Shown here: positions 1 to 14,833 of the stretch, one piece after another
Layout of the letters: each line of letters starts with the position of its first letter
Position numbering within the stretch: the stretch's first letter is position 1
Origin: an uncultured Erysipelotrichaceae bacterium
GTDB taxonomy: Bacteria > Bacillota_I > Bacilli_A > RF39 > UBA660
Direction: 5' to 3'
Assembly: GCA_902780395.1 (NCBI GenBank)
Contig: CACZFH010000003.1
Span: 2,333 to 66,332, forward strand
Length of the DNA: 64,000 bases
Translations under genes and position numbers: made by a program
Notes under the pieces: model-generated
Told to the model about the DNA's origin: nothing
Seen by the model: the letters and a program-made list of their open reading frames with translations, nothing else
Databases searched by the model: none

Positions 1-144
1 TATCCCATACCAAATAGCCTGTTTTAAAGCTAAATTGCCTAAAGAACTAGAAGTATAGGTTAAAGCACTATTAATAGTAATTATACTAATAATAGATAAT
101 AAAAAAATAGGAATTAATATTTGATAATTAATTTTGTATTTCAT
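1..144 (-). CDS. SEDS-family protein (RodA/FtsW/SpoVE-like), first 48 codons only; gene continues left of the window
   Basis: Reverse-strand ATG at 142-144 behind a GAAGGTG SD. Translation MKYKINYQILIPIFLLSIISIITINSALTYTSSSLGNLALKQAIWYGI has TM1 plus the 'LKQ.iW' opening recalled for RodA/FtsW. Too short for the ORF track. Confidence 0.5.
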   Translation of the reverse strand, partial: MKYKINYQILIPIFLLSIISIITINSALTYTSSSLGNLALKQAIWYGI

Positions 145-224
145 AGAAAACACCTTCTTTTTTATTATACCAAAAAGAATGTATTTTTATGAAACAAATT
201 CATAAAATAAATAAGGAGTGATTT

Positions 225-500
225 ATGAAAAAATTACCAAGTATTTATAAAAATATTAACACCATGAAAGATCATAATAATAAGATGTGTTATGTAAATA
301 ATGATAAAGAAACAATAAATGACATCTTAAATGATATTTTTAGTGGTTATCATATTCCATACCATATACAAGTCCAAATAATTACTAAAAGTAAAGTATT
401 TAATACCTACCTAACAGCACGAGGAAATAACTACTTATTAACGATTCAAAATGAATTAATAAAGTTATCAGACATAATAGATATAAAAAGAATATCATGA
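225..500 (+). CDS. Hypothetical 91-aa protein (possibly spore-associated, next to the CotZ-like gene)
   Basis: ORF with AAGGAG SD 8 nt upstream. No motif I can assign. Confidence 0.35.
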   Translation: MKKLPSIYKNINTMKDHNNKMCYVNNDKETINDILNDIFSGYHIPYHIQVQIITKSKVFNTYLTARGNNYLLTIQNELIKLSDIIDIKRIS

Positions 501-512
501 GATATTCTTTTA

Positions 513-920
513 TTATGAACATAAATCAATAGAAGTATCTTGGAAACAACGAAGAGCTCCACAACAAGATAAATCAATCGTAACAAATTGTCCAGTACTA
601 GAATATTGATTCAACTCTTCATTATAGGCAAGAATTCTACAAGTACAACAACAATCATCTAAAGCTTCTACTCTTAATCGATTACTAGTTCCAGTAGTAC
701 CATCACTTAAAGTATAATTAAAAGTCCATGGTTCTCCATTACTACAAATAAACAATTGAATAGGTCGAGTATTATAACAAATAGTATTCGCAATAGGACC
801 TAGAAATGGTTTTTCACAGCCTAAATAATTATCATTATCAAAATCTTGTCTTTGTAATACTAATATTTTTTGTAATACATCTGTTATACAAGAAGAACAA
901 TTATTATTAGAACAATTCAT
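513..920 (-). CDS. Cysteine-rich spore coat/exosporium protein, CotY/CotZ family
   Basis: 135 aa with N-terminal NCSSCITDVLQKILVLQ, central RLRVEALDDCCCTCRIL and C-terminal IDLSCCGALRC. These mirror the conserved Cys blocks of Bacillus CotY/CotZ as recalled. GGAGG SD present. Confidence 0.65.
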   Translation of the reverse strand: MNCSNNNCSSCITDVLQKILVLQRQDFDNDNYLGCEKPFLGPIANTICYNTRPIQLFICSNGEPWTFNYTLSDGTTGTSNRLRVEALDDCCCTCRILAYNEELNQYSSTGQFVTIDLSCCGALRCFQDTSIDLCS

Positions 921-1111
921 ATCTAAACCTCCTTTCTAAAAGAAATATTTATCTCTAATATAAAATATGTAGGAAGAAAAAGATTGTATAAGCAAATACC
1001 TACATTATAGAATATGATAAAAATGTAAATAAATGTAAAGAATAATAAAAAGACTTTTAATTGGAAATACTAATAGTATATAATGGGTTTAGAAAATATG
1101 GAGGTGAAAGA

Positions 1112-1399
1112 ATGCAAGAACCAGCAGATTTATTAGGGTTCAATATACCAGCATTAAAAGTTAAAATTGATGAAACCAAAACTCAAAATGGAAAAAATGT
1201 GAATAATAAGGAAAATCTAGAAAATTATATCACTGAAAAATTAGAGCCATTGTGGACAACAGAGGCAGGAAAAGAAGCAATACAATTATTAAGAGATTTT
1301 ATGGAAAATGATTATCAACCATATGTTGATTTCATAAATTTAGCAGTTGATAAATTAGAAATCGTAGTTGATTTATTGAATAACATTGATTACGCATAA
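1112..1399 (+). CDS. WXG100-size (95 aa) helical protein, putative T7SS substrate with a variant Trp motif (LWTTEAGKEA at aa 47-56)
   Basis: GGAGGTG SD favours ATG 1112 over the track start 1061. About 95 aa, acidic, helical-looking, with the Trp motif exactly mid-sequence. Lies in the T7SS-like locus. Confidence 0.45.
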   Translation: MQEPADLLGFNIPALKVKIDETKTQNGKNVNNKENLENYITEKLEPLWTTEAGKEAIQLLRDFMENDYQPYVDFINLAVDKLEIVVDLLNNIDYA

Positions 1400-1413: not shown

Positions 1414-1722
1414 ATGGCCGATAATAAATTAGCTTCAACATTAACAATTAAAGATAGTGTTGATTATTTAGAGAGTGAATTTTTAAAACCACTAAAAGAT
1501 ACTGGTGGAGAATTAATGGGAATAGTTGAAGCCATTAAAACAAAAGATCTTAAAAATGTTCAAATAGCTGAAACATTAGATACTATTAATTCAAAAATTG
1601 AAGATTATAATAAAAAACTAGAAGATATTATTAATAAATCTAGAGAACAACTTGCTACTAGTAGTGAAACAATTGCTAAGAATCAAGCAGAAATTGAAGC
1701 AAACTTAAATGAACTTGTATAA
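1414..1722 (+). CDS. 102-aa helical protein, WXG100 size class but without Trp (putative T7SS substrate/partner)
   Basis: Strong SD (AGGAGGG), 14 nt after the previous stop. Heptad-like helical sequence. Assignment rests on locus context only. Confidence 0.35.
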   Translation: MADNKLASTLTIKDSVDYLESEFLKPLKDTGGELMGIVEAIKTKDLKNVQIAETLDTINSKIEDYNKKLEDIINKSREQLATSSETIAKNQAEIEANLNELV

Positions 1723-1776: not shown

Positions 1777-2070
1777 ATGGCAAAAGATGAATCAGTAAAA
1801 AAAGCAGTAGAAAAATTTAATGAAGATTTAAATGCTTTAGAAGAATTTGATGATAGCACACGCTATGAACCAGAAGTAAATTTAATGGATATTATAAATA
1901 ATTTAGCTGATATTTGGACTACTCAAAATGGTCAAAATATAACGTCAACACTTCGTAGTTTTGCTCGTGATAAAGTTAATAGTTCTCGTACAGAATATAA
2001 TGAAGGTATTCTTGTTTTTAAATATACAAAAATGTATTATTATGAAACAGATGATTATAAAATGGAATAA
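1777..2070 (+). CDS. WXG100-size (97 aa) helical protein, putative T7SS substrate with a variant Trp motif (IWTTQNGQN at aa 46-54)
   Basis: AGGAGG SD. The central WTTQNG motif is shared with ORF 1112-1399 (WTTEAG). Confidence 0.45.
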   Translation: MAKDESVKKAVEKFNEDLNALEEFDDSTRYEPEVNLMDIINNLADIWTTQNGQNITSTLRSFARDKVNSSRTEYNEGILVFKYTKMYYYETDDYKME

Positions 2071-2089: not shown

Positions 2090-3520
2090 ATGTCAGAAGT
2101 AAGTACGAAGAAAATACGCGAATATGCTGCTAGCTTAAGAGAAGCAGCAAAAAAAAGAGATCAAAAAGCAAGAGAATTATATGAAAAAATTGATGGTGTA
2201 AAAAAAGAATACAATAAAACAATGGCTCTTAATGGCCAAGTAATAAATAGTGAAATAAGGAATCTTGGAGAATCAGGAACACCTCATGAGTATTTAGTAA
2301 CAACAACTGCACATGTTTATTGTAATCCGGATGGAATATCAGAAGGAATTACGAAGATAGATAATGGTTATGTTGAGTATTGCAATGATATGTATAAAAT
2401 TTGTCAAATATGTGATTTGCTAGATGAAAGTGCAGAAGAAATAGATAGAAATTATGAAAAAATCAAAGAAGAATTAGAATCCATTATTGCCAAACCTGAT
2501 CATGAAGAATCAGATGAAGAACCAAAAACAGAGCCCGAAGAACCTGGAAAACCAGATGAAGAACCAAAGCCAGAGTCTGAAGAACCAAAATCAGATGAAG
2601 AACCAAAAACAGAGCCTGAAGAACCTGGAAAACCAGATGAAGAACCAAAGCCAGAGTCTGAAGAACCAAAGACAGAGCCTGAAGAACCAAAACCAGATGA
2701 AGAACCAAAGCCAGATTATAATCCTCCAAAGGGAACAACTCCATCAGAAGAAAAAACTGAGGGAGATAAACAAGAAAAAGCTGAAGGGGATAAACAAAAA
2801 AAATCAGAGGAAGAAACGAAGAATCCAAAGACTGATGAAGGTAACAAGCCAAAAGAAGAAACTACAACTAAAACAGAAACAAGCAAAGATTCTTCTAAAG
2901 AACCAAAAAAAGAAGAGCCAAGTACTGTTACTCCACCATCTGAAACTAAAACAGAAACAACAACTACAGAGCCACAGCAAGGAACTTATGTACCACCTGC
3001 AGAAACAAACAATAACAACAATTATAATAATTATTCAAATGAGACGCCAATTAATAATAATGTAGAAACAGGTGAAGAAACTATGACAACAGAGCCAGAG
3101 ATACCAAAAGGATCAGATGAAACAGCTCCTTCTCCAGAAGTACCTGATGACGAAATTGTCAAAGGCAATGAATATACTAAGATTCCAACTTCAGATACTC
3201 CAATTGAAACAAAACATAAATCTGGCAATGGTTTCATTCCAATTGCCGCTGGTTTAAGTGCTGCCGCTGCTGCAGGTATCGGTGCTAAAGTTTACATGGA
3301 TAGAAAAAATAATAATGACAATGGGGAAGATGATTTTACTTCCGAAGAATTAAATAGTGATGAAAGTACTATAAGTAATCAAATAGATAATAATACTCAG
3401 GAAGATACTAATAAGGATAATACCCCTGAAGAAGACAATATAAATAATGATGATTATAGTGCTAAACCAGAAAAATATGGTGCTAGAAACAATAATGAGA
3501 TAGCTGATCTACAACAATAG
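2090..3520 (+). CDS. 476-aa tail-anchored protein: helical N-domain, Pro/Glu/Lys- and Thr-rich repeat linker, Gly/Ala-zipper TM helix (FIPIAAGLSAAAAAGIGAKVY), acidic/Asn-rich tail
   Basis: AAGGGGG SD and a long ORF. Domain layout read directly from the translation. Function unknown; associated with the T7SS locus. Confidence 0.55.
   Translation: MSEVSTKKIREYAASLREAAKKRDQKARELYEKIDGVKKEYNKTMALNGQVINSEIRNLGESGTPHEYLVTTTAHVYCNPDGISEGITKIDNGYVEYCNDMYKICQICDLLDESAEEIDRNYEKIKEELESIIAKPDHEESDEEPKTEPEEPGKPDEEPKPESEEPKSDEEPKTEPEEPGKPDEEPKPESEEPKTEPEEPKPDEEPKPDYNPPKGTTPSEEKTEGDKQEKAEGDKQKKSEEETKNPKTDEGNKPKEETTTKTETSKDSSKEPKKEEPSTVTPPSETKTETTTTEPQQGTYVPPAETNNNNNYNNYSNETPINNNVETGEETMTTEPEIPKGSDETAPSPEVPDDEIVKGNEYTKIPTSDTPIETKHKSGNGFIPIAAGLSAAAAAGIGAKVYMDRKNNNDNGEDDFTSEELNSDESTISNQIDNNTQEDTNKDNTPEEDNINNDDYSAKPEKYGARNNNEIADLQQ
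2510..2716 (+). repeat. In-frame 81-bp tandem repeat, 2 full units plus a 45-bp partial unit, encoding (SDEEPKTEPEEPGKPDEEPKPESEEPK)n
   Basis: Units 2510-2590 and 2591-2671 are near-identical (1-2 substitutions). The partial third copy spans 2672-2716. Confidence 0.9.
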
Positions 3521-3524
3521 TCAA

Positions 3525-3552
3525 AAGAAGGATAAATCATTCCTTCTTTTTT
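3525..3552 (+). terminator. Rho-independent terminator after the 1112-3520 operon
   Basis: Stem AAGAAGGA / TCCTTCTT with an 8-nt loop, followed by a T-run. Confidence 0.7.
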
Positions 3553-3610
3553 ATTTGACTAAGTAGCATTTAAATCTTATAATGATAATAGAATAATAGG
3601 AGGTAGTATC

Positions 3611-4117
3611 ATGGGAAAAGTAGATTGGATAACATGGAACACAGACTCAAGAGATATTATAAATCCAGATAAAACAGTAGAAAAAATACTTGAAATATAC
3701 CAAGACTATAATAGCTATATACAATCAAATATATATGAAATAATAAAAAAAGAGACTCAAATTGGTGGTATAGACAAAGCTTCAATTAATTTATATGGAG
3801 AATCTCCCGCTTATGAAAAAGCAATAAAAATTCTAAACCAAATAGATGAAATATCTCTTATTATGAATAATTTTATCAATAATATTAAATCTTCAACAGA
3901 AGAACAAAAAAAGCTAGAAAAGAATGATTTAATTAAGGCAATTGAAGATAAAATTGCCGAAGAAAAGAAAATCTTAGATAATACAGAGTTATTAAAAAGT
4001 AGAATAAGTATGTCTAATCAAGTAGTATCTATAGAAGAAGTAGAAGAGATAATAAAAATTAGTCACGATAAAATAAATCGTTTACAAGAAAGATTAGAAA
4101 TAGCAAAGAATATTTAA
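3611..4117 (+). CDS. 168-aa coiled-coil protein, T7SS-locus associated, function unknown
   Basis: AGGAGGT SD. Helical, Glu/Lys/Ile-rich sequence. Confidence 0.4.
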   Translation: MGKVDWITWNTDSRDIINPDKTVEKILEIYQDYNSYIQSNIYEIIKKETQIGGIDKASINLYGESPAYEKAIKILNQIDEISLIMNNFINNIKSSTEEQKKLEKNDLIKAIEDKIAEEKKILDNTELLKSRISMSNQVVSIEEVEEIIKISHDKINRLQERLEIAKNI

Positions 4118-4128
4118 GGAGGAAGAAT

Positions 4129-4959
4129 ATGAATAATGGCTTTAATGTATGTTTAGATTTAGAAAAAATCCATAGTAGTTCTTCCATCGTTAGTAATATT
4201 CAAGATCAAGTATCATCTAGAGATTTATTAGATCCTTTTATTGAAATAGAAGAACAAATAAAAGAAATTAATTTCATTCATGGAAATTGTATTCCAAAGT
4301 ATAAAGAACCTATTACAGAAATAATAACTAAATTAAATGAGTTAAAAAAGGAAATATCTGAACTAGATTATGCTCTAAAAATGACATATACAGAGTTTTC
4401 TAAGACAGAAAAAATAGATAATAATGGAATATATAATATAGTAAAATTATATCCAAATCCTGATATAGAAGAGAAAATAAACAATATTATTGCTACTAAT
4501 CCAACTATTAAAGCCACTAATAGTTCTCTTCTTTTTAATCAATCACAAGCAACTATTAAAGAACCAAATTTTATTCAAAATAGTATATCAACTTTAGCTA
4601 GTGACATAAATGGTTCTATTAAAACCATTCCTCCAATAGAGCAAGAAGAACCAGCTAAACCAGAAATTAATACAGTACCAATAGGATTAGGAATTGCCGC
4701 AGCGGGAATTGCTGGAGCGACGGGAGCAGTAGCCCTAGATTATATATCTAAACCAAAGCAAGCCCATTTCGAATCATATCAAGAACCAATAGAATATCAA
4801 ACACAAAAAGAATCCCCAAAAATTCAAAATGGAGTAGAAAACCCACAAAGTTCAGAAAAAAAACAAGAAGAACAAAAACAATATCAAGCTAATCAAGATT
4901 TAAATCAATTAGATAAGTACTATAGTGATAAAGAACCTCGTGAAAATAATGAAGAATAA
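4129..4959 (+). CDS. 276-aa tail-anchored protein: helical N-domain, linker, Gly/Ala-zipper TM (VPIGLGIAAAGIAGATGAVAL), Gln/Glu-rich tail; same architecture as 2090-3520
   Basis: AAGGAGG SD. The TM segment shares a PI..G[LI][SA]AA core with the 476-aa protein. Confidence 0.5.
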   Translation: MNNGFNVCLDLEKIHSSSSIVSNIQDQVSSRDLLDPFIEIEEQIKEINFIHGNCIPKYKEPITEIITKLNELKKEISELDYALKMTYTEFSKTEKIDNNGIYNIVKLYPNPDIEEKINNIIATNPTIKATNSSLLFNQSQATIKEPNFIQNSISTLASDINGSIKTIPPIEQEEPAKPEINTVPIGLGIAAAGIAGATGAVALDYISKPKQAHFESYQEPIEYQTQKESPKIQNGVENPQSSEKKQEEQKQYQANQDLNQLDKYYSDKEPRENNEE

Positions 4960-8631: not shown

Positions 8632-9006
8632 ATGATGGGAAGACCAAAAGGAACCAATAATAAAATGAGAACGCCAGAGGAAAAAGAAAAAATAGTTAAA
8701 GAGTATCTTGAGGGTGAATCGCCTGCTCGTTTAAATAGAAAATATGATTTACCTAATAAACTAATTTATCAGTGGATAAAAAAGTATGAAGATAATGGAT
8801 TTGATGGGCTTAAATCAAATACAGGTAAATATAGTACGGGTGGAAAAGGATTGCATTTCAAGAAACCAAAAAATAAAATTGAAGAACTTGAGTTAGAATT
8901 AATGAAGAAAGAAATAGAGATAGCCAGATTAAAAAAAGGCTATATGGTGAAAGGAGTTGGGGCCGAAAAGGAATTCGTTACTACATTCGACAAGAATACA
9001 AAATAG
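8632..9006 (+). CDS. IS3-family transposase OrfA (HTH domain)
   Basis: 124 aa with an HTH-like N-terminus and a leucine-zipper-like ELELELMKKEIEIARLKK. Slippery AAAAAAAG at 8931-8938. Confidence 0.85.
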   Translation: MMGRPKGTNNKMRTPEEKEKIVKEYLEGESPARLNRKYDLPNKLIYQWIKKYEDNGFDGLKSNTGKYSTGGKGLHFKKPKNKIEELELELMKKEIEIARLKKGYMVKGVGAEKEFVTTFDKNTK

Positions 9007-9038
9007 TAGATTATTGCAAACATAAATATTCTATCAAA

Positions 9039-9863
9039 ATGTTATGTGAGTATATGTCTATTAGTAGATCTGGATATTATAAATGGAAATATAGAAAAGA
9101 AAATCCTAGTTTAAAAGAAATCACAAGACAAAGTGATTTAGAATTAATTAAGAAAGTTCACAATAAACATAAAGCCCATGGTTATAGATGGATTAATAGG
9201 CATATTAGGAATCTATATGGGGTCTATTATACAGATAATTATGTTCATAGATTATGTAAGTATGAAAATATAAGATACCAAGGAAAGCATTACAAGTGGA
9301 AGAAACCAGATGAAGAACACGAAAAATTCAGTAATTTAGTATGGAATGGATGGAAGTATCTAACAAGACCATTCGAGGTAATAGTTTCGGACATGACATC
9401 GTTTAGGGTAAAAGGAACGTATTATGAACTAACAATGTACTTCGATGCGTGGAACAAGGAAATAATTGGTTATGGATTATCTTCTAGAAAAGGAGATAAA
9501 AGAAGTTACTATGATGGTTTAAACCAAGTTTTAAACAAAATAAAAGAAGAACAAATTGAAGACCCTATCATTTTGCATACCGACCAAGGCTCAGTTTATT
9601 CTTCTAAAAAATATAATAGTCTTCTAAATGAACTTAATATTCAACGATCAATGAGTCGAGCTGGAACACCAACAGATAATCCAGTAAATGAATCATTGAA
9701 TGGTTGGATTAAAGAAGAACTATTTATGGATTTCGATTTAAAACATTCTAATGACGTTCCAAATCTAATTAAATTATACATTGAATATTACAATAATGAA
9801 AGACCAAGCTATGCATTAAAATATAAAACCCCAATTCAATATAAACATGAATTAGGGTTCTAG
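9039..9863 (+). CDS. IS3-family transposase OrfB (DDE/rve integrase core), expressed as an OrfAB fusion by -1 frameshift
   Basis: DDE-type core (VSDMT..., HTDQGSVYSS, NPVNESLNGWIKEE). The orfB frame is open from the slippery site (8931) to 9039 and sits in the -1 frame relative to orfA. Confidence 0.85.
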   Translation: MLCEYMSISRSGYYKWKYRKENPSLKEITRQSDLELIKKVHNKHKAHGYRWINRHIRNLYGVYYTDNYVHRLCKYENIRYQGKHYKWKKPDEEHEKFSNLVWNGWKYLTRPFEVIVSDMTSFRVKGTYYELTMYFDAWNKEIIGYGLSSRKGDKRSYYDGLNQVLNKIKEEQIEDPIILHTDQGSVYSSKKYNSLLNELNIQRSMSRAGTPTDNPVNESLNGWIKEELFMDFDLKHSNDVPNLIKLYIEYYNNERPSYALKYKTPIQYKHELGF

Positions 9864-9990: not shown

Positions 9991-12900
9991 ATGAGAATAT
10001 ACTTATTTTTAAATGATCGTCTTGTTACATTTACCTTACCAAAAAATCGTTTTGGTAGTTATACCTTCGACTATAATCCTTTGGAAGAAAGTAAATTAAT
10101 TAATATTGAAAATAGAAGTGGAAAATGGGTTTTATATGCTACAGAAGATGTAGAAGTATATACCTGTGAACAAGGAGTAAAAGAAACAGAGTTACTTCCT
10201 CAAAACTATTATTTCTTAAAAAGATTTGATATAACTTATTTAATATATGTAGTAAATGGTTTTGAAAATAATTTTTCACTATATAAATATAGTGATAATT
10301 ATACTATCACTATTGGTAAAGGAGAAGGTTGCAATGTTCAGTTTAATTGCCCTGTTATCAATGGAAAAGTATTGGAAATATCATTTGCTAATGACAAAAT
10401 TTGTTTAAAAAAAGGATCTGGAGTGAGAGTATATCGTAATGATTCCATGATTGATAATGAATCAGTTTATATTACTCAAGGAGATCGAATTAATTTATAT
10501 GGTTTAAAATTCATCTTTTTTAATGGTTGTATTCTTATAAACAAAATGCCAAATGTAAAATTTGATTATCAGCAATTAGGATTTAAACTAGGTGTTTTAA
10601 GACAAACCGAAGAAAAAAAAGATTTTGAAGTAAAAGATATTGATTTATATAAGCCAGAAGACTATTTTAATAAGTCTCCTCGGTTTAGAAGATTAATAGA
10701 AACCAAGAATATTAATCTAACAGCTCCACCATCTACCCAAGAAAAAGAAGAAATGCCATTATTATTAACAATAGCACCAATGCTTACAATGGCCATAACT
10801 TCTATTACAATGCTAGCTCAAACAGTTTCAAAATTACTAGATGGAACAGCAGATTTATATACAACATGGCCAAGTTTATTAGCAGCCATAGCTATGCTTT
10901 TATCAACTTTGTTATGGCCACGATTAATTAATAAATACCAAAAGAATCAAGAAAAAAAGAAACGAAAAGAATTAGTAGAAAAATATAAGGAATATTTAGA
11001 CAAAAAAAGAGCTGAATTAGAAGATGAAAAAATATTACAAAAAGAAATCATTATTGAAAATACAATCACAGTAAATGATTGCTTCAATAATATCAATGTA
11101 GGAAGATTAAACTTTTGGAGTAAAAGAGTAGAACAAAATGATTTTCTAAATGTTCGTTTAGGAATAGGAAATGAGTTATTAGATGTTGAAATCAATTATC
11201 CAGAAGAAGAATTTACAATTGAACAAGATGAATTAAAAAAAGAAGCTGATAAACTAGTAGAAGAATATAAGTATATAGAAAATGTTCCTCTAGGCTATTC
11301 ATTTGCTTCATGTAGAATAACTGGCATAATGGGTAATATTCATAAAATGTATGGATTGATGAATAATATAATACTTCAGTTAATATCTTTTTACAGTTAT
11401 GATGATGTAAAATTTGTAATATTAACCAATGAAAAGCATGCTAAAGCTTGGGAATATATGAAATATTTAAATCATACCTTTGATAATAATAAAGAAATAC
11501 GTTTCTTTTCAACAAACTATGAATCAGCAAAGAGAATAAATGATTATTTAAATATTGAACTACAACAACGATTATCATTACAAGGAGATGAAAAAAATCA
11601 AATTACCTTTAGACCACACTATATTATTATTACAGATGATTATACTCAAATAAAAGGCTTATCATTTATTAAAAGTTTAGTAGAAACAGATGTTTCTCTA
11701 GGATTTAGCTTTATTATTATGGAAAATACTCTAAGTAAATTACCAAGTAAATGTAATAATTTTATTTCTTTAGGAGATACATCATCATCTTTACTAAGAA
11801 ATTCTTATGAACAACAAGAACAACAATTATTTAAGGATGAAATTGTCTATAATATTGATATGAAATCAGTAGTTGAGAAAATATCAAATATTCCAGTAGC
11901 ATTCCAAGAAGGAAATAAGATGCTACCTGAATCGATTACTTTCTTAGAGATGGAAAAAGTAGGTAAAGTAGAACAATTAAATATCTTAGATAGATGGCAT
12001 AATAACGATTCTACCCAAAGCCTAAAAGCAGAAATTGGTGTAGATGCTGAAGGAAATTTAATGTATTTAGATTTACATGAAAAGTATCATGGACCACATG
12101 GCTTAATTGCCGGTATGACTGGTTCTGGTAAATCCGAATTTATTATTACTTATATTTTATCAATGGCTGTTAATTATAGTCCAGATGATGTAGCCTTTAT
12201 TTTAATTGACTACAAAGGTGGTGGACTAGCCTTTGCTTTTGAAAATAAGTCTTCGGGAATTGTTCTCCCACACTTAGCTGGAACCATAACAAACTTGGAT
12301 AAGGCCGAAATGAATCGTACCTTAGTAAGTATAGATAGTGAAATAAAAAGACGTCAAACACTATTTAATGCTGCTAGAGATAAACTAGGAGAGAGTACAA
12401 TTGATATTTATAAATATCAAGGCTTCTATCATGAAGGAAAATTAGATGAACCATTACCACACTTATTTATAATATGTGATGAGTTTGCTGAATTAAAGAG
12501 CCAACAACCAGATTTTATGGACAATTTAATTAGTGTTGCCCGTATTGGACGTTCCTTAGGAGTACACTTAATTTTAGCAACTCAAAAACCAAGTGGTGTT
12601 GTAAATGATCAAATTTGGTCTAATACAAAATTTAGAGTCTGCTTGAAAGTACAAGATACAAGTGACTCTAATGAAATGCTAAAAAAACCAGATGCTGCTA
12701 GTATCAAGCAAACAGGACGTTTTTATCTCCAAGTAGGGTATGATGAATACTTTGCTTTAGGTCAATCTGGCTGGGCAGGAGCCAAATATTTCCCATCAGA
12801 AAAAATAATAAAACAAGCAGATAAGAGTATAAATATTATTGATGATACAGGTAGTTTCATTAAAAGTATGCAAGCTAGTAACAATACTAGAATAGAAGCT

Positions 12901-14568
12901 CAAGGAGAGCAACTAGCTGCTATTTTAAATAAAGTGATTGAAGTAGCTGAAAGTGAACACAAAAAAGTTAAGAAATTATGGCTTGAAAATGTTCCCGCTA
13001 AGATTTTCTATAATGAATTAGCTTCTAAATATAAAGTAGAATTCAATCAAAACGATGTGGACATGATTATCGGAGAATATGATGCCCCAGAAAGTCAAAA
13101 ACAAGGATTAGTTCATTATAATTTAAGAGAGCAAGGAAATACTCTAATATATGGTAATGATGGAGAAGAAAGAGAAAAATGTATAAATGCTTTATTATAT
13201 TCTGCTTTTAAAAATTATACAGCTGAAGAGTTAAATGTATATTTAGTAGACTATGGTTCAGAAGTAACTCGTATGTTTGCAGAATTTCCACAATTTGGTG
13301 GAATGGTTTTTGCTGGAGACGATGAAAGACTTAAGAATTCACTAAATTTAATTGTCAAAGAAATTGCTTATAGAAAAAAAGCTTTTGTATCATACGGTGG
13401 TTCTTTTGAAGAATATAATAAGAATAATGAAGAAAAATTACCACAAATACTATATATTATGAATAATTATGAAGGAATAGATGAAGTTTATCCAAATCTA
13501 AGTGAGGATTTAACTAGTATTTGTAGAGATTGTACTAGATATGGAATATACTTTATCATTACTCTAAGTAACCCTTCTACACTACCAAGAAGAGCAAGAT
13601 TATCTTTTACAAATACAATTGCTTTCCACTTCTCAGATTCTTCTCAATATGAAGATGTATTTGATTTAAGATGTAGAATAAGACCAAAAGATATTTCAGG
13701 AAGAGGCTTAACCATTTGTGAAGGAGCAATTCATGAATTTCAAACCTTCTCAATTTCCGATGAAAATCATTCAGATAATGATATTGTTAAAGAATTATTA
13801 AAAGAGGTTAAAACAAAGAATACAACAGTTGCTAAAAAAATACCAGAATTACCTGATCGTGTAACCTTGGATATAATTGAAAAAGATATAAAGGATTATA
13901 ATTCAATCCCAATTGGAGTATATCGTAATTCTTTAAAGACAGCATTTATTGAGCTATCTAATATACCAATTTACACAATGAGTTCTGTTCGTTTACCATA
14001 TATGAACGCTTTTATAGAATCTTTTATGACAGTATTAAAAAGGATACCAAATTGCAGTGTAATATTTGTAGATGTCCAAAAGCAAGTACCAAAAATAAAG
14101 GATATTTGTCTGAACTATTTTGATGATAATCTATCTGCAGTAATTGAAAAAATGATTAAAATAGAAGAAGATCTAAATAATAGAAGTAAGCATTTCATCT
14201 ATGTATTCTATGGAATAGAAAAACTACCAAAAAAAGTACCAAATAAACAAATTCTAGAAAAATTAGTAAATCATGTTAAGAATAATGAACATAGTAATAT
14301 GATAATATGTGATTCTAATAAAGGTTTAAGAGAACTTGATGGAGAATCATGGTACTATAATGCTAGAAACAATACAGATGGATTATGGATAGGAAAAGGT
14401 GTAGATGATCAACAAGTATTAAAGATTAATAGAATAACAAAAGAAATGAGTAAGAACTATACCAACAATTATGGATATCTTGATGTTGATAGTACTCCAG
14501 AACTAGTAAAATTAATAGAATTTGCGGAAATCATTGAAGAGGAGGCAGAACAAGAAAATGAAGAATAA
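9991..14568 (+). CDS. essC: Type VII secretion FtsK/SpoIIIE-family ATPase, EssC/YukB-like
   Basis: 1525 aa with an N-terminal FHA-like region and two TM helices (aa ~256-312). First ATPase domain has Walker A GMTGSGKSE (nt 12112-12138) and Walker B LFIICDEFAEL. Two further FtsK-like domains have degenerate P-loops. Confidence 0.85.
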   Translation: MRIYLFLNDRLVTFTLPKNRFGSYTFDYNPLEESKLINIENRSGKWVLYATEDVEVYTCEQGVKETELLPQNYYFLKRFDITYLIYVVNGFENNFSLYKYSDNYTITIGKGEGCNVQFNCPVINGKVLEISFANDKICLKKGSGVRVYRNDSMIDNESVYITQGDRINLYGLKFIFFNGCILINKMPNVKFDYQQLGFKLGVLRQTEEKKDFEVKDIDLYKPEDYFNKSPRFRRLIETKNINLTAPPSTQEKEEMPLLLTIAPMLTMAITSITMLAQTVSKLLDGTADLYTTWPSLLAAIAMLLSTLLWPRLINKYQKNQEKKKRKELVEKYKEYLDKKRAELEDEKILQKEIIIENTITVNDCFNNINVGRLNFWSKRVEQNDFLNVRLGIGNELLDVEINYPEEEFTIEQDELKKEADKLVEEYKYIENVPLGYSFASCRITGIMGNIHKMYGLMNNIILQLISFYSYDDVKFVILTNEKHAKAWEYMKYLNHTFDNNKEIRFFSTNYESAKRINDYLNIELQQRLSLQGDEKNQITFRPHYIIITDDYTQIKGLSFIKSLVETDVSLGFSFIIMENTLSKLPSKCNNFISLGDTSSSLLRNSYEQQEQQLFKDEIVYNIDMKSVVEKISNIPVAFQEGNKMLPESITFLEMEKVGKVEQLNILDRWHNNDSTQSLKAEIGVDAEGNLMYLDLHEKYHGPHGLIAGMTGSGKSEFIITYILSMAVNYSPDDVAFILIDYKGGGLAFAFENKSSGIVLPHLAGTITNLDKAEMNRTLVSIDSEIKRRQTLFNAARDKLGESTIDIYKYQGFYHEGKLDEPLPHLFIICDEFAELKSQQPDFMDNLISVARIGRSLGVHLILATQKPSGVVNDQIWSNTKFRVCLKVQDTSDSNEMLKKPDAASIKQTGRFYLQVGYDEYFALGQSGWAGAKYFPSEKIIKQADKSINIIDDTGSFIKSMQASNNTRIEAQGEQLAAILNKVIEVAESEHKKVKKLWLENVPAKIFYNELASKYKVEFNQNDVDMIIGEYDAPESQKQGLVHYNLREQGNTLIYGNDGEEREKCINALLYSAFKNYTAEELNVYLVDYGSEVTRMFAEFPQFGGMVFAGDDERLKNSLNLIVKEIAYRKKAFVSYGGSFEEYNKNNEEKLPQILYIMNNYEGIDEVYPNLSEDLTSICRDCTRYGIYFIITLSNPSTLPRRARLSFTNTIAFHFSDSSQYEDVFDLRCRIRPKDISGRGLTICEGAIHEFQTFSISDENHSDNDIVKELLKEVKTKNTTVAKKIPELPDRVTLDIIEKDIKDYNSIPIGVYRNSLKTAFIELSNIPIYTMSSVRLPYMNAFIESFMTVLKRIPNCSVIFVDVQKQVPKIKDICLNYFDDNLSAVIEKMIKIEEDLNNRSKHFIYVFYGIEKLPKKVPNKQILEKLVNHVKNNEHSNMIICDSNKGLRELDGESWYYNARNNTDGLWIGKGVDDQQVLKINRITKEMSKNYTNNYGYLDVDSTPELVKLIEFAEIIEEEAEQENEE

Positions 14569-14833
14569 AGTTCTAGTAAAAATATTTATACCAGAAGTTG
14601 ATTCTGATTTTGATGTATATATTCCTGTCAATGAAATAATATGGAAAATCAAGAAGTTAGTTTCAAAATGTGCATCAGATCTAACGGGAGGAAATTTTGA
14701 TTTTTCCAAAGAATATGTTTTCTTAAATTCTAAAACAGGACAATTATACAGAGAAAATGATATTGTCATCAATACAGATATTAGAAATGCTACAGAATTA
14801 ATCTTAATATCAGTCAATGAAATAGCAATATAG
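14558..14833 (+). CDS. YukD/EsaB-like small ubiquitin-fold protein (T7SS accessory)
   Basis: 91 aa from ATG 14558 (GAGGAGG SD at 14540-14546), overlapping the essC stop. The pattern VLVKIFIP....FDVYIPVNEIIWKIKKLV ... NATELILI resembles B. subtilis YukD as recalled. Confidence 0.55.
   Translation: MKNKVLVKIFIPEVDSDFDVYIPVNEIIWKIKKLVSKCASDLTGGNFDFSKEYVFLNSKTGQLYRENDIVINTDIRNATELILISVNEIAI

Follow-up and report, generated by a model that had tools for sequence, protein, structure and literature searches.

INTRODUCTION

Type VII secretion in Firmicutes is understood as the export of soluble WXG100 proteins and LXG toxins through a machine that contains EssA, EssB, and EsaA. Here we describe two proteins, of 476 and 276 amino acids (aa), that are encoded near a gene for an EssC-like ATPase of a system for type VII secretion (T7SS) in an uncultured Erysipelotrichaceae bacterium. 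Both genes lie in a stretch of 64,000 nucleotides (nt) (assembly GCA_902780395.1, contig CACZFH010000003.1, positions 2,333 to 66,332, forward strand), which we call the window and to which all coordinates refer; features written as start..end are on its + strand. This widespread gut lineage differs from the usual scheme in that it seems to have EssC and YukD only, in that its commonest large cargo, as we interpret it, ends in an invariant membrane module, and in that the variable part is the N terminus with its partner proteins, not a C-terminal toxin. We class the two proteins as probable T7SS cargo of an LXG-like kind, in which the polymorphism is reversed and the C terminus is a membrane module not described before. 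The reading that we favor, tentatively, is that they are cargo anchored in the membrane of the producing cell, N terminus out and C terminus in, and not parts of the machine.

Several described systems resemble this one. TelE of Streptococcus gallolyticus, EsxX and TspA of Staphylococcus aureus, and LXG-T2 of Streptococcus suis are glycine-zipper toxins: T7SS cargo with a helical N-terminal targeting domain and small helical partner genes upstream, in which a small-residue helix near the C terminus is the most conserved part of variable proteins (PMC10434224, PMC12744356, PMC12955049). The window proteins are similarly laid out. Unlike these toxins, however, they have a G-xxx-A-xxx-G zipper and, after the helix, a tail of ∼74 aa that is acidic and conserved and bears a terminal motif; they have no LXG Pfam domain, no DUF5085 or polytopic immunity gene, and no detectable sequence relationship to the toxins. 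Their module is confined to one gut Bacilli family.

The cassettes of relatives resemble LXG/Lap/Ltc cassettes, with two or three small helical proteins, a large protein with a disordered middle, and a DUF4176 protein (PMC12478183), and as in those systems the N-domain covaries with the partner genes. In contrast to LXG toxins, the N terminus is variable and the C terminus constant, the constant part is a membrane module and not an enzyme, and the machine is without EssB, EsaA, and EssA. TsdH and TseK of T7SSd/e (Garrett et al. 2024, PMC11217815) also have one transmembrane (TM) helix and belong to noncanonical loci without EssB or EsaA, but they are short, have unstructured cytoplasmic stretches, and are kept with their EssC type, whereas the proteins described here are patchy in distribution, polymorphic, and multicopy, with their own partners and chaperones.

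RESULTS AND DISCUSSION

A shared C-terminal module

The ORF list confirmed both open reading frames (ORFs), 2090..3520 (476 aa) and 4129..4959 (276 aa), that a preliminary description of this DNA had proposed. A Kyte-Doolittle scan found exactly one hydrophobic helix in each protein, at aa 382 to 402 of the 476-aa protein (FIPIAAGLSAAAAAGIGAKVY, 3233..3295) and at aa 183 to 203 of the 276-aa protein (VPIGLGIAAAGIAGATGAVAL, 4675..4737), and zero in the small ORFs neighboring the two genes. As had been described, the helices are rich in Gly and Ala and share a PI..G[LI][SA]AA core, and the N-domains of both proteins are helical in AlphaFold2 (AF2) models.

The helix is part of a module of ∼100 to 130 aa that consists, in order, of a K/T-I-P motif, a small-residue helix of the pattern [VI]P[IV]xxG-xxx-A-xxx-[GAT], a patch of basic residues, ∼70 aa of acidic tail, and the terminal motif Y-x-A-(x)-R...L (in its fuller form, Y-x-A-(x)-R...L-x-[DK]-[LF]). 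Every element is present in both window proteins, with Q for R in the last motif of the 276-aa copy. We refer to the version in the 476-aa protein as module A and to that in the 276-aa protein as module B. In module A, the juxtamembrane motif is YTKIPTS (3173..3193), of which I31 and P32 are invariant in alignment A3; P0, G4, A8, and G12 of the helix lie on one face; and the tail (3296..3517) comprises the basic patch MDRK, an acidic spacer, and the terminal motif KYGARNNNEIADLQQ (3473-3517). In module B, KTIPPI (4621..4638) is the counterpart of KIPTS, the two motifs being aligned by hhalign, and the tail (4738..4956) has a K-containing start, an acidic spacer, and the motif QYQANQDLNQLDKYY (4879-4923). 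Within this last stretch the window copy reads YQANQD, an Arg-to-Gln change from the Y-[HQ]-A-x-R-[DN] of more than 90% of its family. Many module A tails also have a conserved FDT[DE]EW stretch, which in the window reads DDFTSEEL (3296-3420).

Some details of the preliminary description need correction. The tails, given as 55 to 70 aa, measure 74 and 73 aa, and the proteins are not tail-anchored in the strict sense, both in having tails of more than 70 aa (family median, 74) and in having a distribution of K and R that predicts the C terminus to be inside. The central zipper residue is Ala (G4-xxx-A8-xxx-G12) and not the Gly of a strict GxxxGxxxG; a homologue in the congeneric genome G035 has the canonical G4-G8-G12. 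A Pro/Glu/Thr-rich linker is found in the 476-aa protein only. There it is an acidic low-complexity P/E/T/K stretch (2495..3172; 22% E, 16% P, 13% T, and 12% K over aa 136 to 395) encoded in part by 21-, 42-, and 81-nt tandem repeats at 2508-2716, whereas the short linker of the 276-aa protein is rich in I, N, P, E, and S, its one P/E-type stretch being a short EEPAKPE.

Modules A and B are collinear: K/T-I-P, 14 to 20 residues, [VI]P[IV]xxG-xxx-A-xxx-G, basic patch, acidic spacer, and a final Y-x-A-(x)-R that goes with two hydrophobic positions. Profile-profile alignment with hhalign gave a probability of 82% and an E value of 1e-5 over 51 columns (120 and 26 sequences), and smaller alignments gave 67% and 5e-5. 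The module A hidden Markov model (HMM) did not significantly match the 276-aa window sequence, nor did the reverse comparison (E about 0.8), and BLASTP of one protein against the other yielded low-complexity matches only. Because direct detection of this kind fails, the A-B homology rests on profile-profile comparison and on intermediates. The latter were found in a database of 2885 ORFs, in which both HMMs matched proteins of four other genera (E values for A and B, respectively: L037, 1.5e-18 and 9e-7; L029, 8e-7 and 1e-7; L040, 2e-3 and 4e-8; L041, 3e-4 and 2e-5). In genus g48 the helices (AIPIGLGVAAAGAATVAGIRY) visibly fall between types A and B. Since proteins of other genera match the HMMs of both, types A and B form one superfamily, and the shared core of the window proteins is, as judged from these alignments, a real but remote homology that does not extend beyond the C-terminal module. 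No sequence relationship joins the N-domains: they are not linked by BLASTP, and their profiles do not align in hhalign; both are predicted α-hairpins. Thus, the paralogous architecture previously suggested for the two proteins holds for the module but not for the N-domains. Searches of PDB sequences with both profiles returned compositional matches only, such as the acidic tail against DSS1/SEM1.

Variation within the module family

At least 132 protein clusters (90% identity) have the module. None of them has a Pfam domain or a name, and for the module itself we found no Pfam or NCBIfam model, no PDB relative, no name in the source records, and no description in the literature searched; a family definition is deserved. 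No Pfam or NCBIfam model matches the 476-aa protein, the 276-aa protein, or the 168-aa protein encoded next to the latter (see below).

Family-wide statistics were computed on 120 of the module A clusters. Across these clusters the helix is nearly always IPIAAGLSAAAAAGIGAKAY, 114 have a KIP-like motif ahead of it, an S/T/G/P/E-rich spacer lies upstream, the median tail length is 74 aa, and 75 clusters have an ELADLQ-type C-terminal end. In this respect the preliminary description is supported: the membrane helix is the part that is conserved and central to function. Compared with this near-invariant C terminus, the first 130 aa are diverse, with at least 26 types that are unlinked by BLAST. 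A signal-peptide-like N terminus was found in none of the 120 clusters. K and R residues together average 0.99 over the 15 aa that precede the helix versus 2.93 downstream, and the same asymmetry exists in all 14 members of the 276-aa family; this excess on the C-terminal side of the helix predicts that the C terminus is inside the cell.

The 476-aa protein illustrates the pattern. Its last ∼130 aa, from EIVKGNEYTKIPTS to the end, recur as the C termini of proteins of 374 to 1410 aa in relatives, with identities of ∼45 to 75% in most relatives and 34 to 73% over all matches in the genus. The last 130 aa of protein P0025 are 100% identical to it, whereas the first 130 aa are only 19% identical. 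The corresponding C-terminal identities of P0026 and P0027 are 96% and 72%, and the N-domains of all three are unrelated to that of the window protein. This pattern looks like N-terminal cassette swapping by recombination.

In the AF2 model, the N-domain of the 476-aa protein (aa 1 to 135, 2090..2494; pLDDT 77) is a long helix (residues 6 to 47), a β-hairpin (strands 51 to 57 and 69 to 75), and a second long helix (83 to 134). Only long hairpins, among them V-ATPase D, prefoldin, and EsxB, matched its fold, and none significantly. A word search among 5.8e9 proteins found no homologue of this domain, and phmmer found 0 matches among 1.84e9 representative proteins. Weak relatives occur in two congeners, one of which, G035, also has three matching small partner genes upstream. 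Matches in loci L015 and L016 were dismissed as spurious.

In the 276-aa protein, a WXG100-like hairpin is joined by the linker to module B. The hairpin (aa 1 to 95, 4129..4413) is modeled by AF2 as helices 11 to 30, 35 to 51, and 59 to 92, with pLDDT values of 83 to 92 for aa 11 to 92. The top Foldseek matches in the PDB were S. aureus EsxA, B. anthracis EsxB, and CFP10/ESAT-6, with probabilities of 0.8 to 0.92 but nonsignificant E values of about 0.4. The domain is like WXG100 proteins in its predicted helix-turn-helix with conserved residues at the turn; it is unlike them in that the turn is [FL]xHGxC (NFIHGNC in the window, 4270-4290) and not WxG, in having no PF06013 match, and in being fused to a membrane module. 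The alignment of the 276-aa family has three conserved blocks: the hairpin turn, where H51, C54, and Y58 are invariant; the near-invariant helix, NTVPIGLGIAAxGIxGxxGAV; and a near-C-terminal PYHAxR[DN]...[ND]KFY (terminal consensus, PYHAxR[DN]..[MI][ND]KFY). In the helix region, N181, T182, P184, G186 to A190, G193, I194, G199, and A200 are invariant in 14 sequences. Homologues of the 276-aa protein are confined to metagenome-assembled genomes (MAGs) of gut Erysipelotrichaceae/Bacilli.

The preliminary description had offered toxic effectors as one possibility. If the proteins were membrane-depolarizing toxins of the TelE/EsxX/TspA/LXG-T2 kind, the whole protein would be released and the C-terminal helix would oligomerize into an ion channel in the membrane of a competitor. 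The N-terminal hairpin and its partners would then serve T7SS targeting only. The architecture does match, with a T7SS-type N terminus, small helical partners, a C-terminal zipper, and a short tail; TelE variants, too, differ along their length yet keep the C-terminal zipper (PMC10434224), and EsxX is built alike (PMC12744356). The DUF4176/Ltc chaperones encoded beside relatives (see below) are typical of LXG toxins, the zipper of the G035 homologue is canonical, the helix is strongly conserved, and the middle region of some large family members contains additional hydrophobic segments rich in Gly.

What argues against a toxin is where the polymorphism lies. It is N-terminal, and the putative toxin part is near-invariant even among the 1 to 4 paralogues of one genome, the reverse of an arms race between toxin and immunity. 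Furthermore, no polytopic or DUF5085-type immunity gene was found in the window or in the ∼25 related loci that we read; in five genomes without the gene for the 276-aa protein and its neighbor, no immunity-type gene follows the DUF4176 gene before the HD/valS operon. In the window copies the central zipper position is Ala, and the single helix stands between a large N-terminal part and a 74-aa tail with a net charge of about −12 or lower, which would make it hard to insert from outside. There is no Gly-zipper or LXG Pfam match, and a class-wide genome sample yielded no module from streptococci or staphylococci. As originally proposed, the toxin reading is not supported. We consider a released toxin, with a hairpin and partners that act in targeting only, less likely than anchored cargo, of which it is the strongest competitor. 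Were the proteins toxins after all, they would be zipper toxins without the expected immunity genes.

Partner genes and chaperones

The N-domain type covaries with the upstream partner genes. In the window, the 476-aa gene is preceded by a trio of genes for small helical proteins: partner 1 (112 aa, 1061..1399, with a possible alternative internal start at 1112), partner 2 (102 aa, 1414..1722), and partner 3 (97 aa, 1777..2070), the last a weak paralogue of partner 1 (hhalign probability 46%, E = 2e-4). Partner 2, for which a Pfam scan gave zero matches over the cutoff, is conserved in the context of loci L023 and L043. A homologue of partner 1 is encoded upstream of the protein with the homologous N-domain in G035 (locus L023). 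P0028 (L043) has a window-like N-domain and a matching trio of 112, 102, and 92 aa upstream. P0027 (L044) shares the stalk and module but not the N-domain, and its upstream partners are different as well: a 98-aa protein, a 100-aa WXG100-like protein (a weak match), and a 658-aa protein. The 658-aa protein has YD-like repeats, and its gene stops 3 nt upstream of that of the module protein (L044:1809-5945).

The partner of the 276-aa family is a soluble helical protein of 168 aa (3611..4117). A homologue is encoded immediately upstream of the 276-family gene in 11 of 11 public loci. Among 47 genomes of the genus, the 276 family occurs in 30 and the 168 family in 31; the two are found together, with adjacent genes, in 30 genomes, and the 31st genome, G023, has a lone weak match to the 168 family (E = 1e-7) and no 276 partner. 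We found no relationship of the 168-aa family to the other partner families, and no DUF5085 match. The 168+276 pair as an immunity system for module A proteins was rejected: 13 genomes hold module A without the pair, which therefore cannot be an obligate immunity. In one relative (L009:10728-17630 / L021:249-7151) a protein of 2300 aa comes after the pair; it has a transglutaminase-core match and a weak zincin (MPTase-PolyVal) match and may be a giant polymorphic toxin.

In relatives, the module A protein is part of a cassette of two WXG-like ORFs (90 to 100 aa), an ORF of ∼140 aa, the module A protein, which begins MGFxSWLTGR..., and a DUF4176 protein. DUF4176 proteins serve T7SSb LXG toxins as Ltc chaperones (PMC12478183). 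Long members of the 276 family (372 to 432 aa) also have a DUF4176 gene next downstream. In both window proteins, as in LXG systems, an elongated α-helical N-domain (AF2) is encoded beside genes for small helical, Lap-like partners. The association with type VII secretion that the preliminary description proposed is thus borne out by these WXG100-like and DUF4176/Ltc cassettes and by the presence of EssC in the genera that have the module.

The machine and the distribution of the module

The presumed exporter is an EssC-like protein of 1525 aa with FHA and FtsK/SpoIIIE ATPase domains (9991..14568; Pfam). It is followed by a YukD/EsaB-like small protein (14522..14833), which has a weak ubiquitin-like Pfam match and is kept after EssC in relatives. 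The FHA domain of the window EssC is Pfam detectable. EssC was found in 47 of 47 congeners, in 1 to 4 paralogues and often in 2 to 4. The second EssC of the window genome is encoded outside the window (G000 contig C19:23787-29718) and is 39% identical to the first; its locus includes a separate YukD-like gene and small helical ORFs, and here, too, membrane partners are absent. YukC/EssB (PF10140) reached the cutoff in 0 of the 47 congeners, and in the EssC loci that we read no membrane-protein gene recurred besides EssC itself. By its gene content, the machine of this lineage looks like a minimal EssC/YukD-only T7SS variant.

These absences make it attractive to regard the two proteins as missing membrane subunits, the second possibility raised in the preliminary description. 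As accessory or core subunits of a T7SS without EssB, EsaA, and EssA, they would have a cytoplasmic hairpin that acts as a tethered WXG-like adaptor and a helix that packs on the TM helices of EssC. Module A is near-universal in the genus (42 of 47 genomes and 17 of the 18 of high quality), the invariance of helix and terminal motif points to a binding partner that is fixed, and the small single-pass TsdH and TseK have been proposed for other T7SS variants (PMC11217815). Nevertheless, this role fits the distribution poorly. The 168+276 pair is present in only 30 of the 47 congeners (10 of the 18 high-quality genomes) versus EssC in all 47, which makes a core-subunit role unlikely. Nor do the homologues always accompany the EssC type of the window, the pair being missing from G007, G008, and G019, 3 of the 8 genomes that have this type. 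Multiple copies, lengths of 374 to 1410 aa, polymorphic N termini, cognate partners, and DUF4176 chaperones are marks of cargo, and one cassette adjoins genes for a conjugative type IV secretion system (T4SS). No Pfam or NCBIfam match identified either protein as EssA, EssB, or EsaA. On balance, we regard a subunit of the apparatus as improbable.

Across 400 Bacilli genomes from the whole class, the module was found in one GTDB family only. In that family, EssC occurs in 61 of 150 genera and the module, with confidence, in only ∼7, so that most EssC-positive genera are without it. The confident module-bearing genera of the family sample all have EssC in at least one genome (hypergeometric P = 0.004). 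A match in G139 was rejected as a false positive.

The two proteins could in principle be envelope or sporulation membrane proteins with a function outside type VII secretion, which merely occupy the same conserved chromosomal slot (rodA/spoVE, CotZ-like, ..., HD, valS) as T7SS cargo. The 168+276 pair always lies between the CotZ-like spore-coat gene and the HD/valS operon, in locus L005 it is alone in the slot with no other T7SS genes, and essC is often on another contig. However, in other genera the module accompanies WXG-like and DUF4176 genes at other chromosomal sites, long 276-family members have their own downstream DUF4176 gene, the predicted fold of the 276-aa N-domain is WXG100-like, and the module occurs only in lineages with EssC. 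We consider a role of this kind very improbable. In order of decreasing probability, then, we place anchored cargo first, followed by a toxin, an apparatus subunit, and a role unrelated to T7SS.

Proposed export and anchoring

Anchored cargo could be produced as follows. The N-terminal α-hairpin would pair with its own small partners (the trio in the case of the 476-aa protein, the 168-aa protein in that of the 276-aa protein) to form an export-competent bundle, as LXG domains do with Lap factors. EssC would then export the N-terminal part, while the C-terminal helix would stay in the membrane of the producer with the tail in the cytoplasm (N-out/C-in). With the helix so retained, the cell surface would display the polymorphic hairpin complex. 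Self-association, docking at EssC, or both might be the task of the invariant helix and tail.

In layout, such proteins would be like sortase-anchored proteins such as streptococcal M, in which a helical tip of variable sequence is carried by a Pro-rich stalk that spans the wall, and a hydrophobic helix is followed by basic residues on the cytoplasmic side. They are unlike them in having no Sec signal peptide and a long acidic tail after the basic patch. Because a surface-protein layout with a stalk before the helix is combined with the lack of a signal peptide, the passenger would need the T7SS to exit. A sortase signal was rejected on the position of the motif and the length of the tail: there is no LPXTG-type motif at the helix, KIPTS/TIPP lies ∼14 to 17 residues before the helix, and the tail is acidic and 73 to 74 aa long.

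It is also possible, though more speculative than anchoring as such, that the module is a dedicated type VII stop-and-anchor signal, whose helix is released into the producer membrane while the acidic tail and terminal motif stay bound to cytoplasmic EssC.

Several points weigh against anchored cargo. We know of no T7SS that releases a TM segment sideways into the membrane, so that the anchoring step would be unprecedented. The helix is conserved well beyond the needs of a passive anchor, and both this and the canonical GxxxGxxxG of the L013 homologue fit a pore-forming zipper too. The fold matches are not significant (E about 0.4), and AF2 gives no confident model of the module, for which reason we draw no conclusion about its fold. 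With E values up to 5, Pfam found neither LXG (PF04740) nor WXG100 in either protein, and PF04740 also failed to match their separate N-domains and the N termini of five large relatives. No DUF4176 gene was found in the window genome, so that the link to chaperones rests on relatives. Finally, MAG G084 has a full cassette (L041, G084:C1 4760-8476), made up of two WXG-like ORFs, an ORF of 182 aa, a module protein of 668 aa, and DUF4176, but EssC was not detected in this MAG, where a housekeeping FtsK was all that was found. A congener of G084, G472, has three EssC genes, and the cassette without EssC reflects either the incompleteness of the MAG or a stranded cassette.

Anchored cargo, if correct, would mean that a variable cell surface can be built in a new way, which would be relevant to how these bacteria meet phage, IgA, and the host in the gut. 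A stop-and-anchor signal would further mean that Gram-positive gut bacteria display hypervariable surface proteins independently of sortase and Sec, and this T7SS would be the first one shown to yield products anchored in the membrane. The module family also provides a concrete handle on substrate recognition and release by minimal EssC-only systems.

Transcription units and surroundings

The two genes appear to belong to separate transcription units. A terminator-like hairpin (3523..3550) would close the unit of the trio and the 476-aa gene, and a near-consensus promoter-like site, TTGACT-17-TATAAT (3555..3583; 11 of 12 consensus matches), would serve the unit of the 168- and 276-aa genes.

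The only clear homologue of the trio+476 cassette is in L023 (G035:C50, 879-13631), directly downstream of conjugative T4SS genes for a TraG P-loop/VirB4-like ATPase and a VirD4/TraG coupling protein. The cassette may therefore move on a mobile element.

The flanks of the cargo island are constant in the window and its relatives: on one side (window 1-920) rodA/spoVE on the minus strand, an ORF of ∼90 aa, and a Cys-rich CotZ-like spore-coat gene, and on the other side the HD/valS operon. This setting leaves room for a connection of the slot with sporulation.

Downstream of the 276-aa gene the order is an HD-domain gene, valS, an IS3-type element (8632-9863), the EssC-like ATPase gene, and the YukD-like ORF. 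The preliminary description placed the two genes inside a T7SS locus. In the window they are 5 kb from essC, with the HD/valS operon and the IS3 element between, but in two close relatives, L043 and L044, essC starts ∼100 bp after valS with no insertion sequence. The IS3-family element, which consists of two ORFs and is sited between valS and essC, is therefore a recent insertion, and the order of cargo genes, HD, valS, and essC is native to the species.

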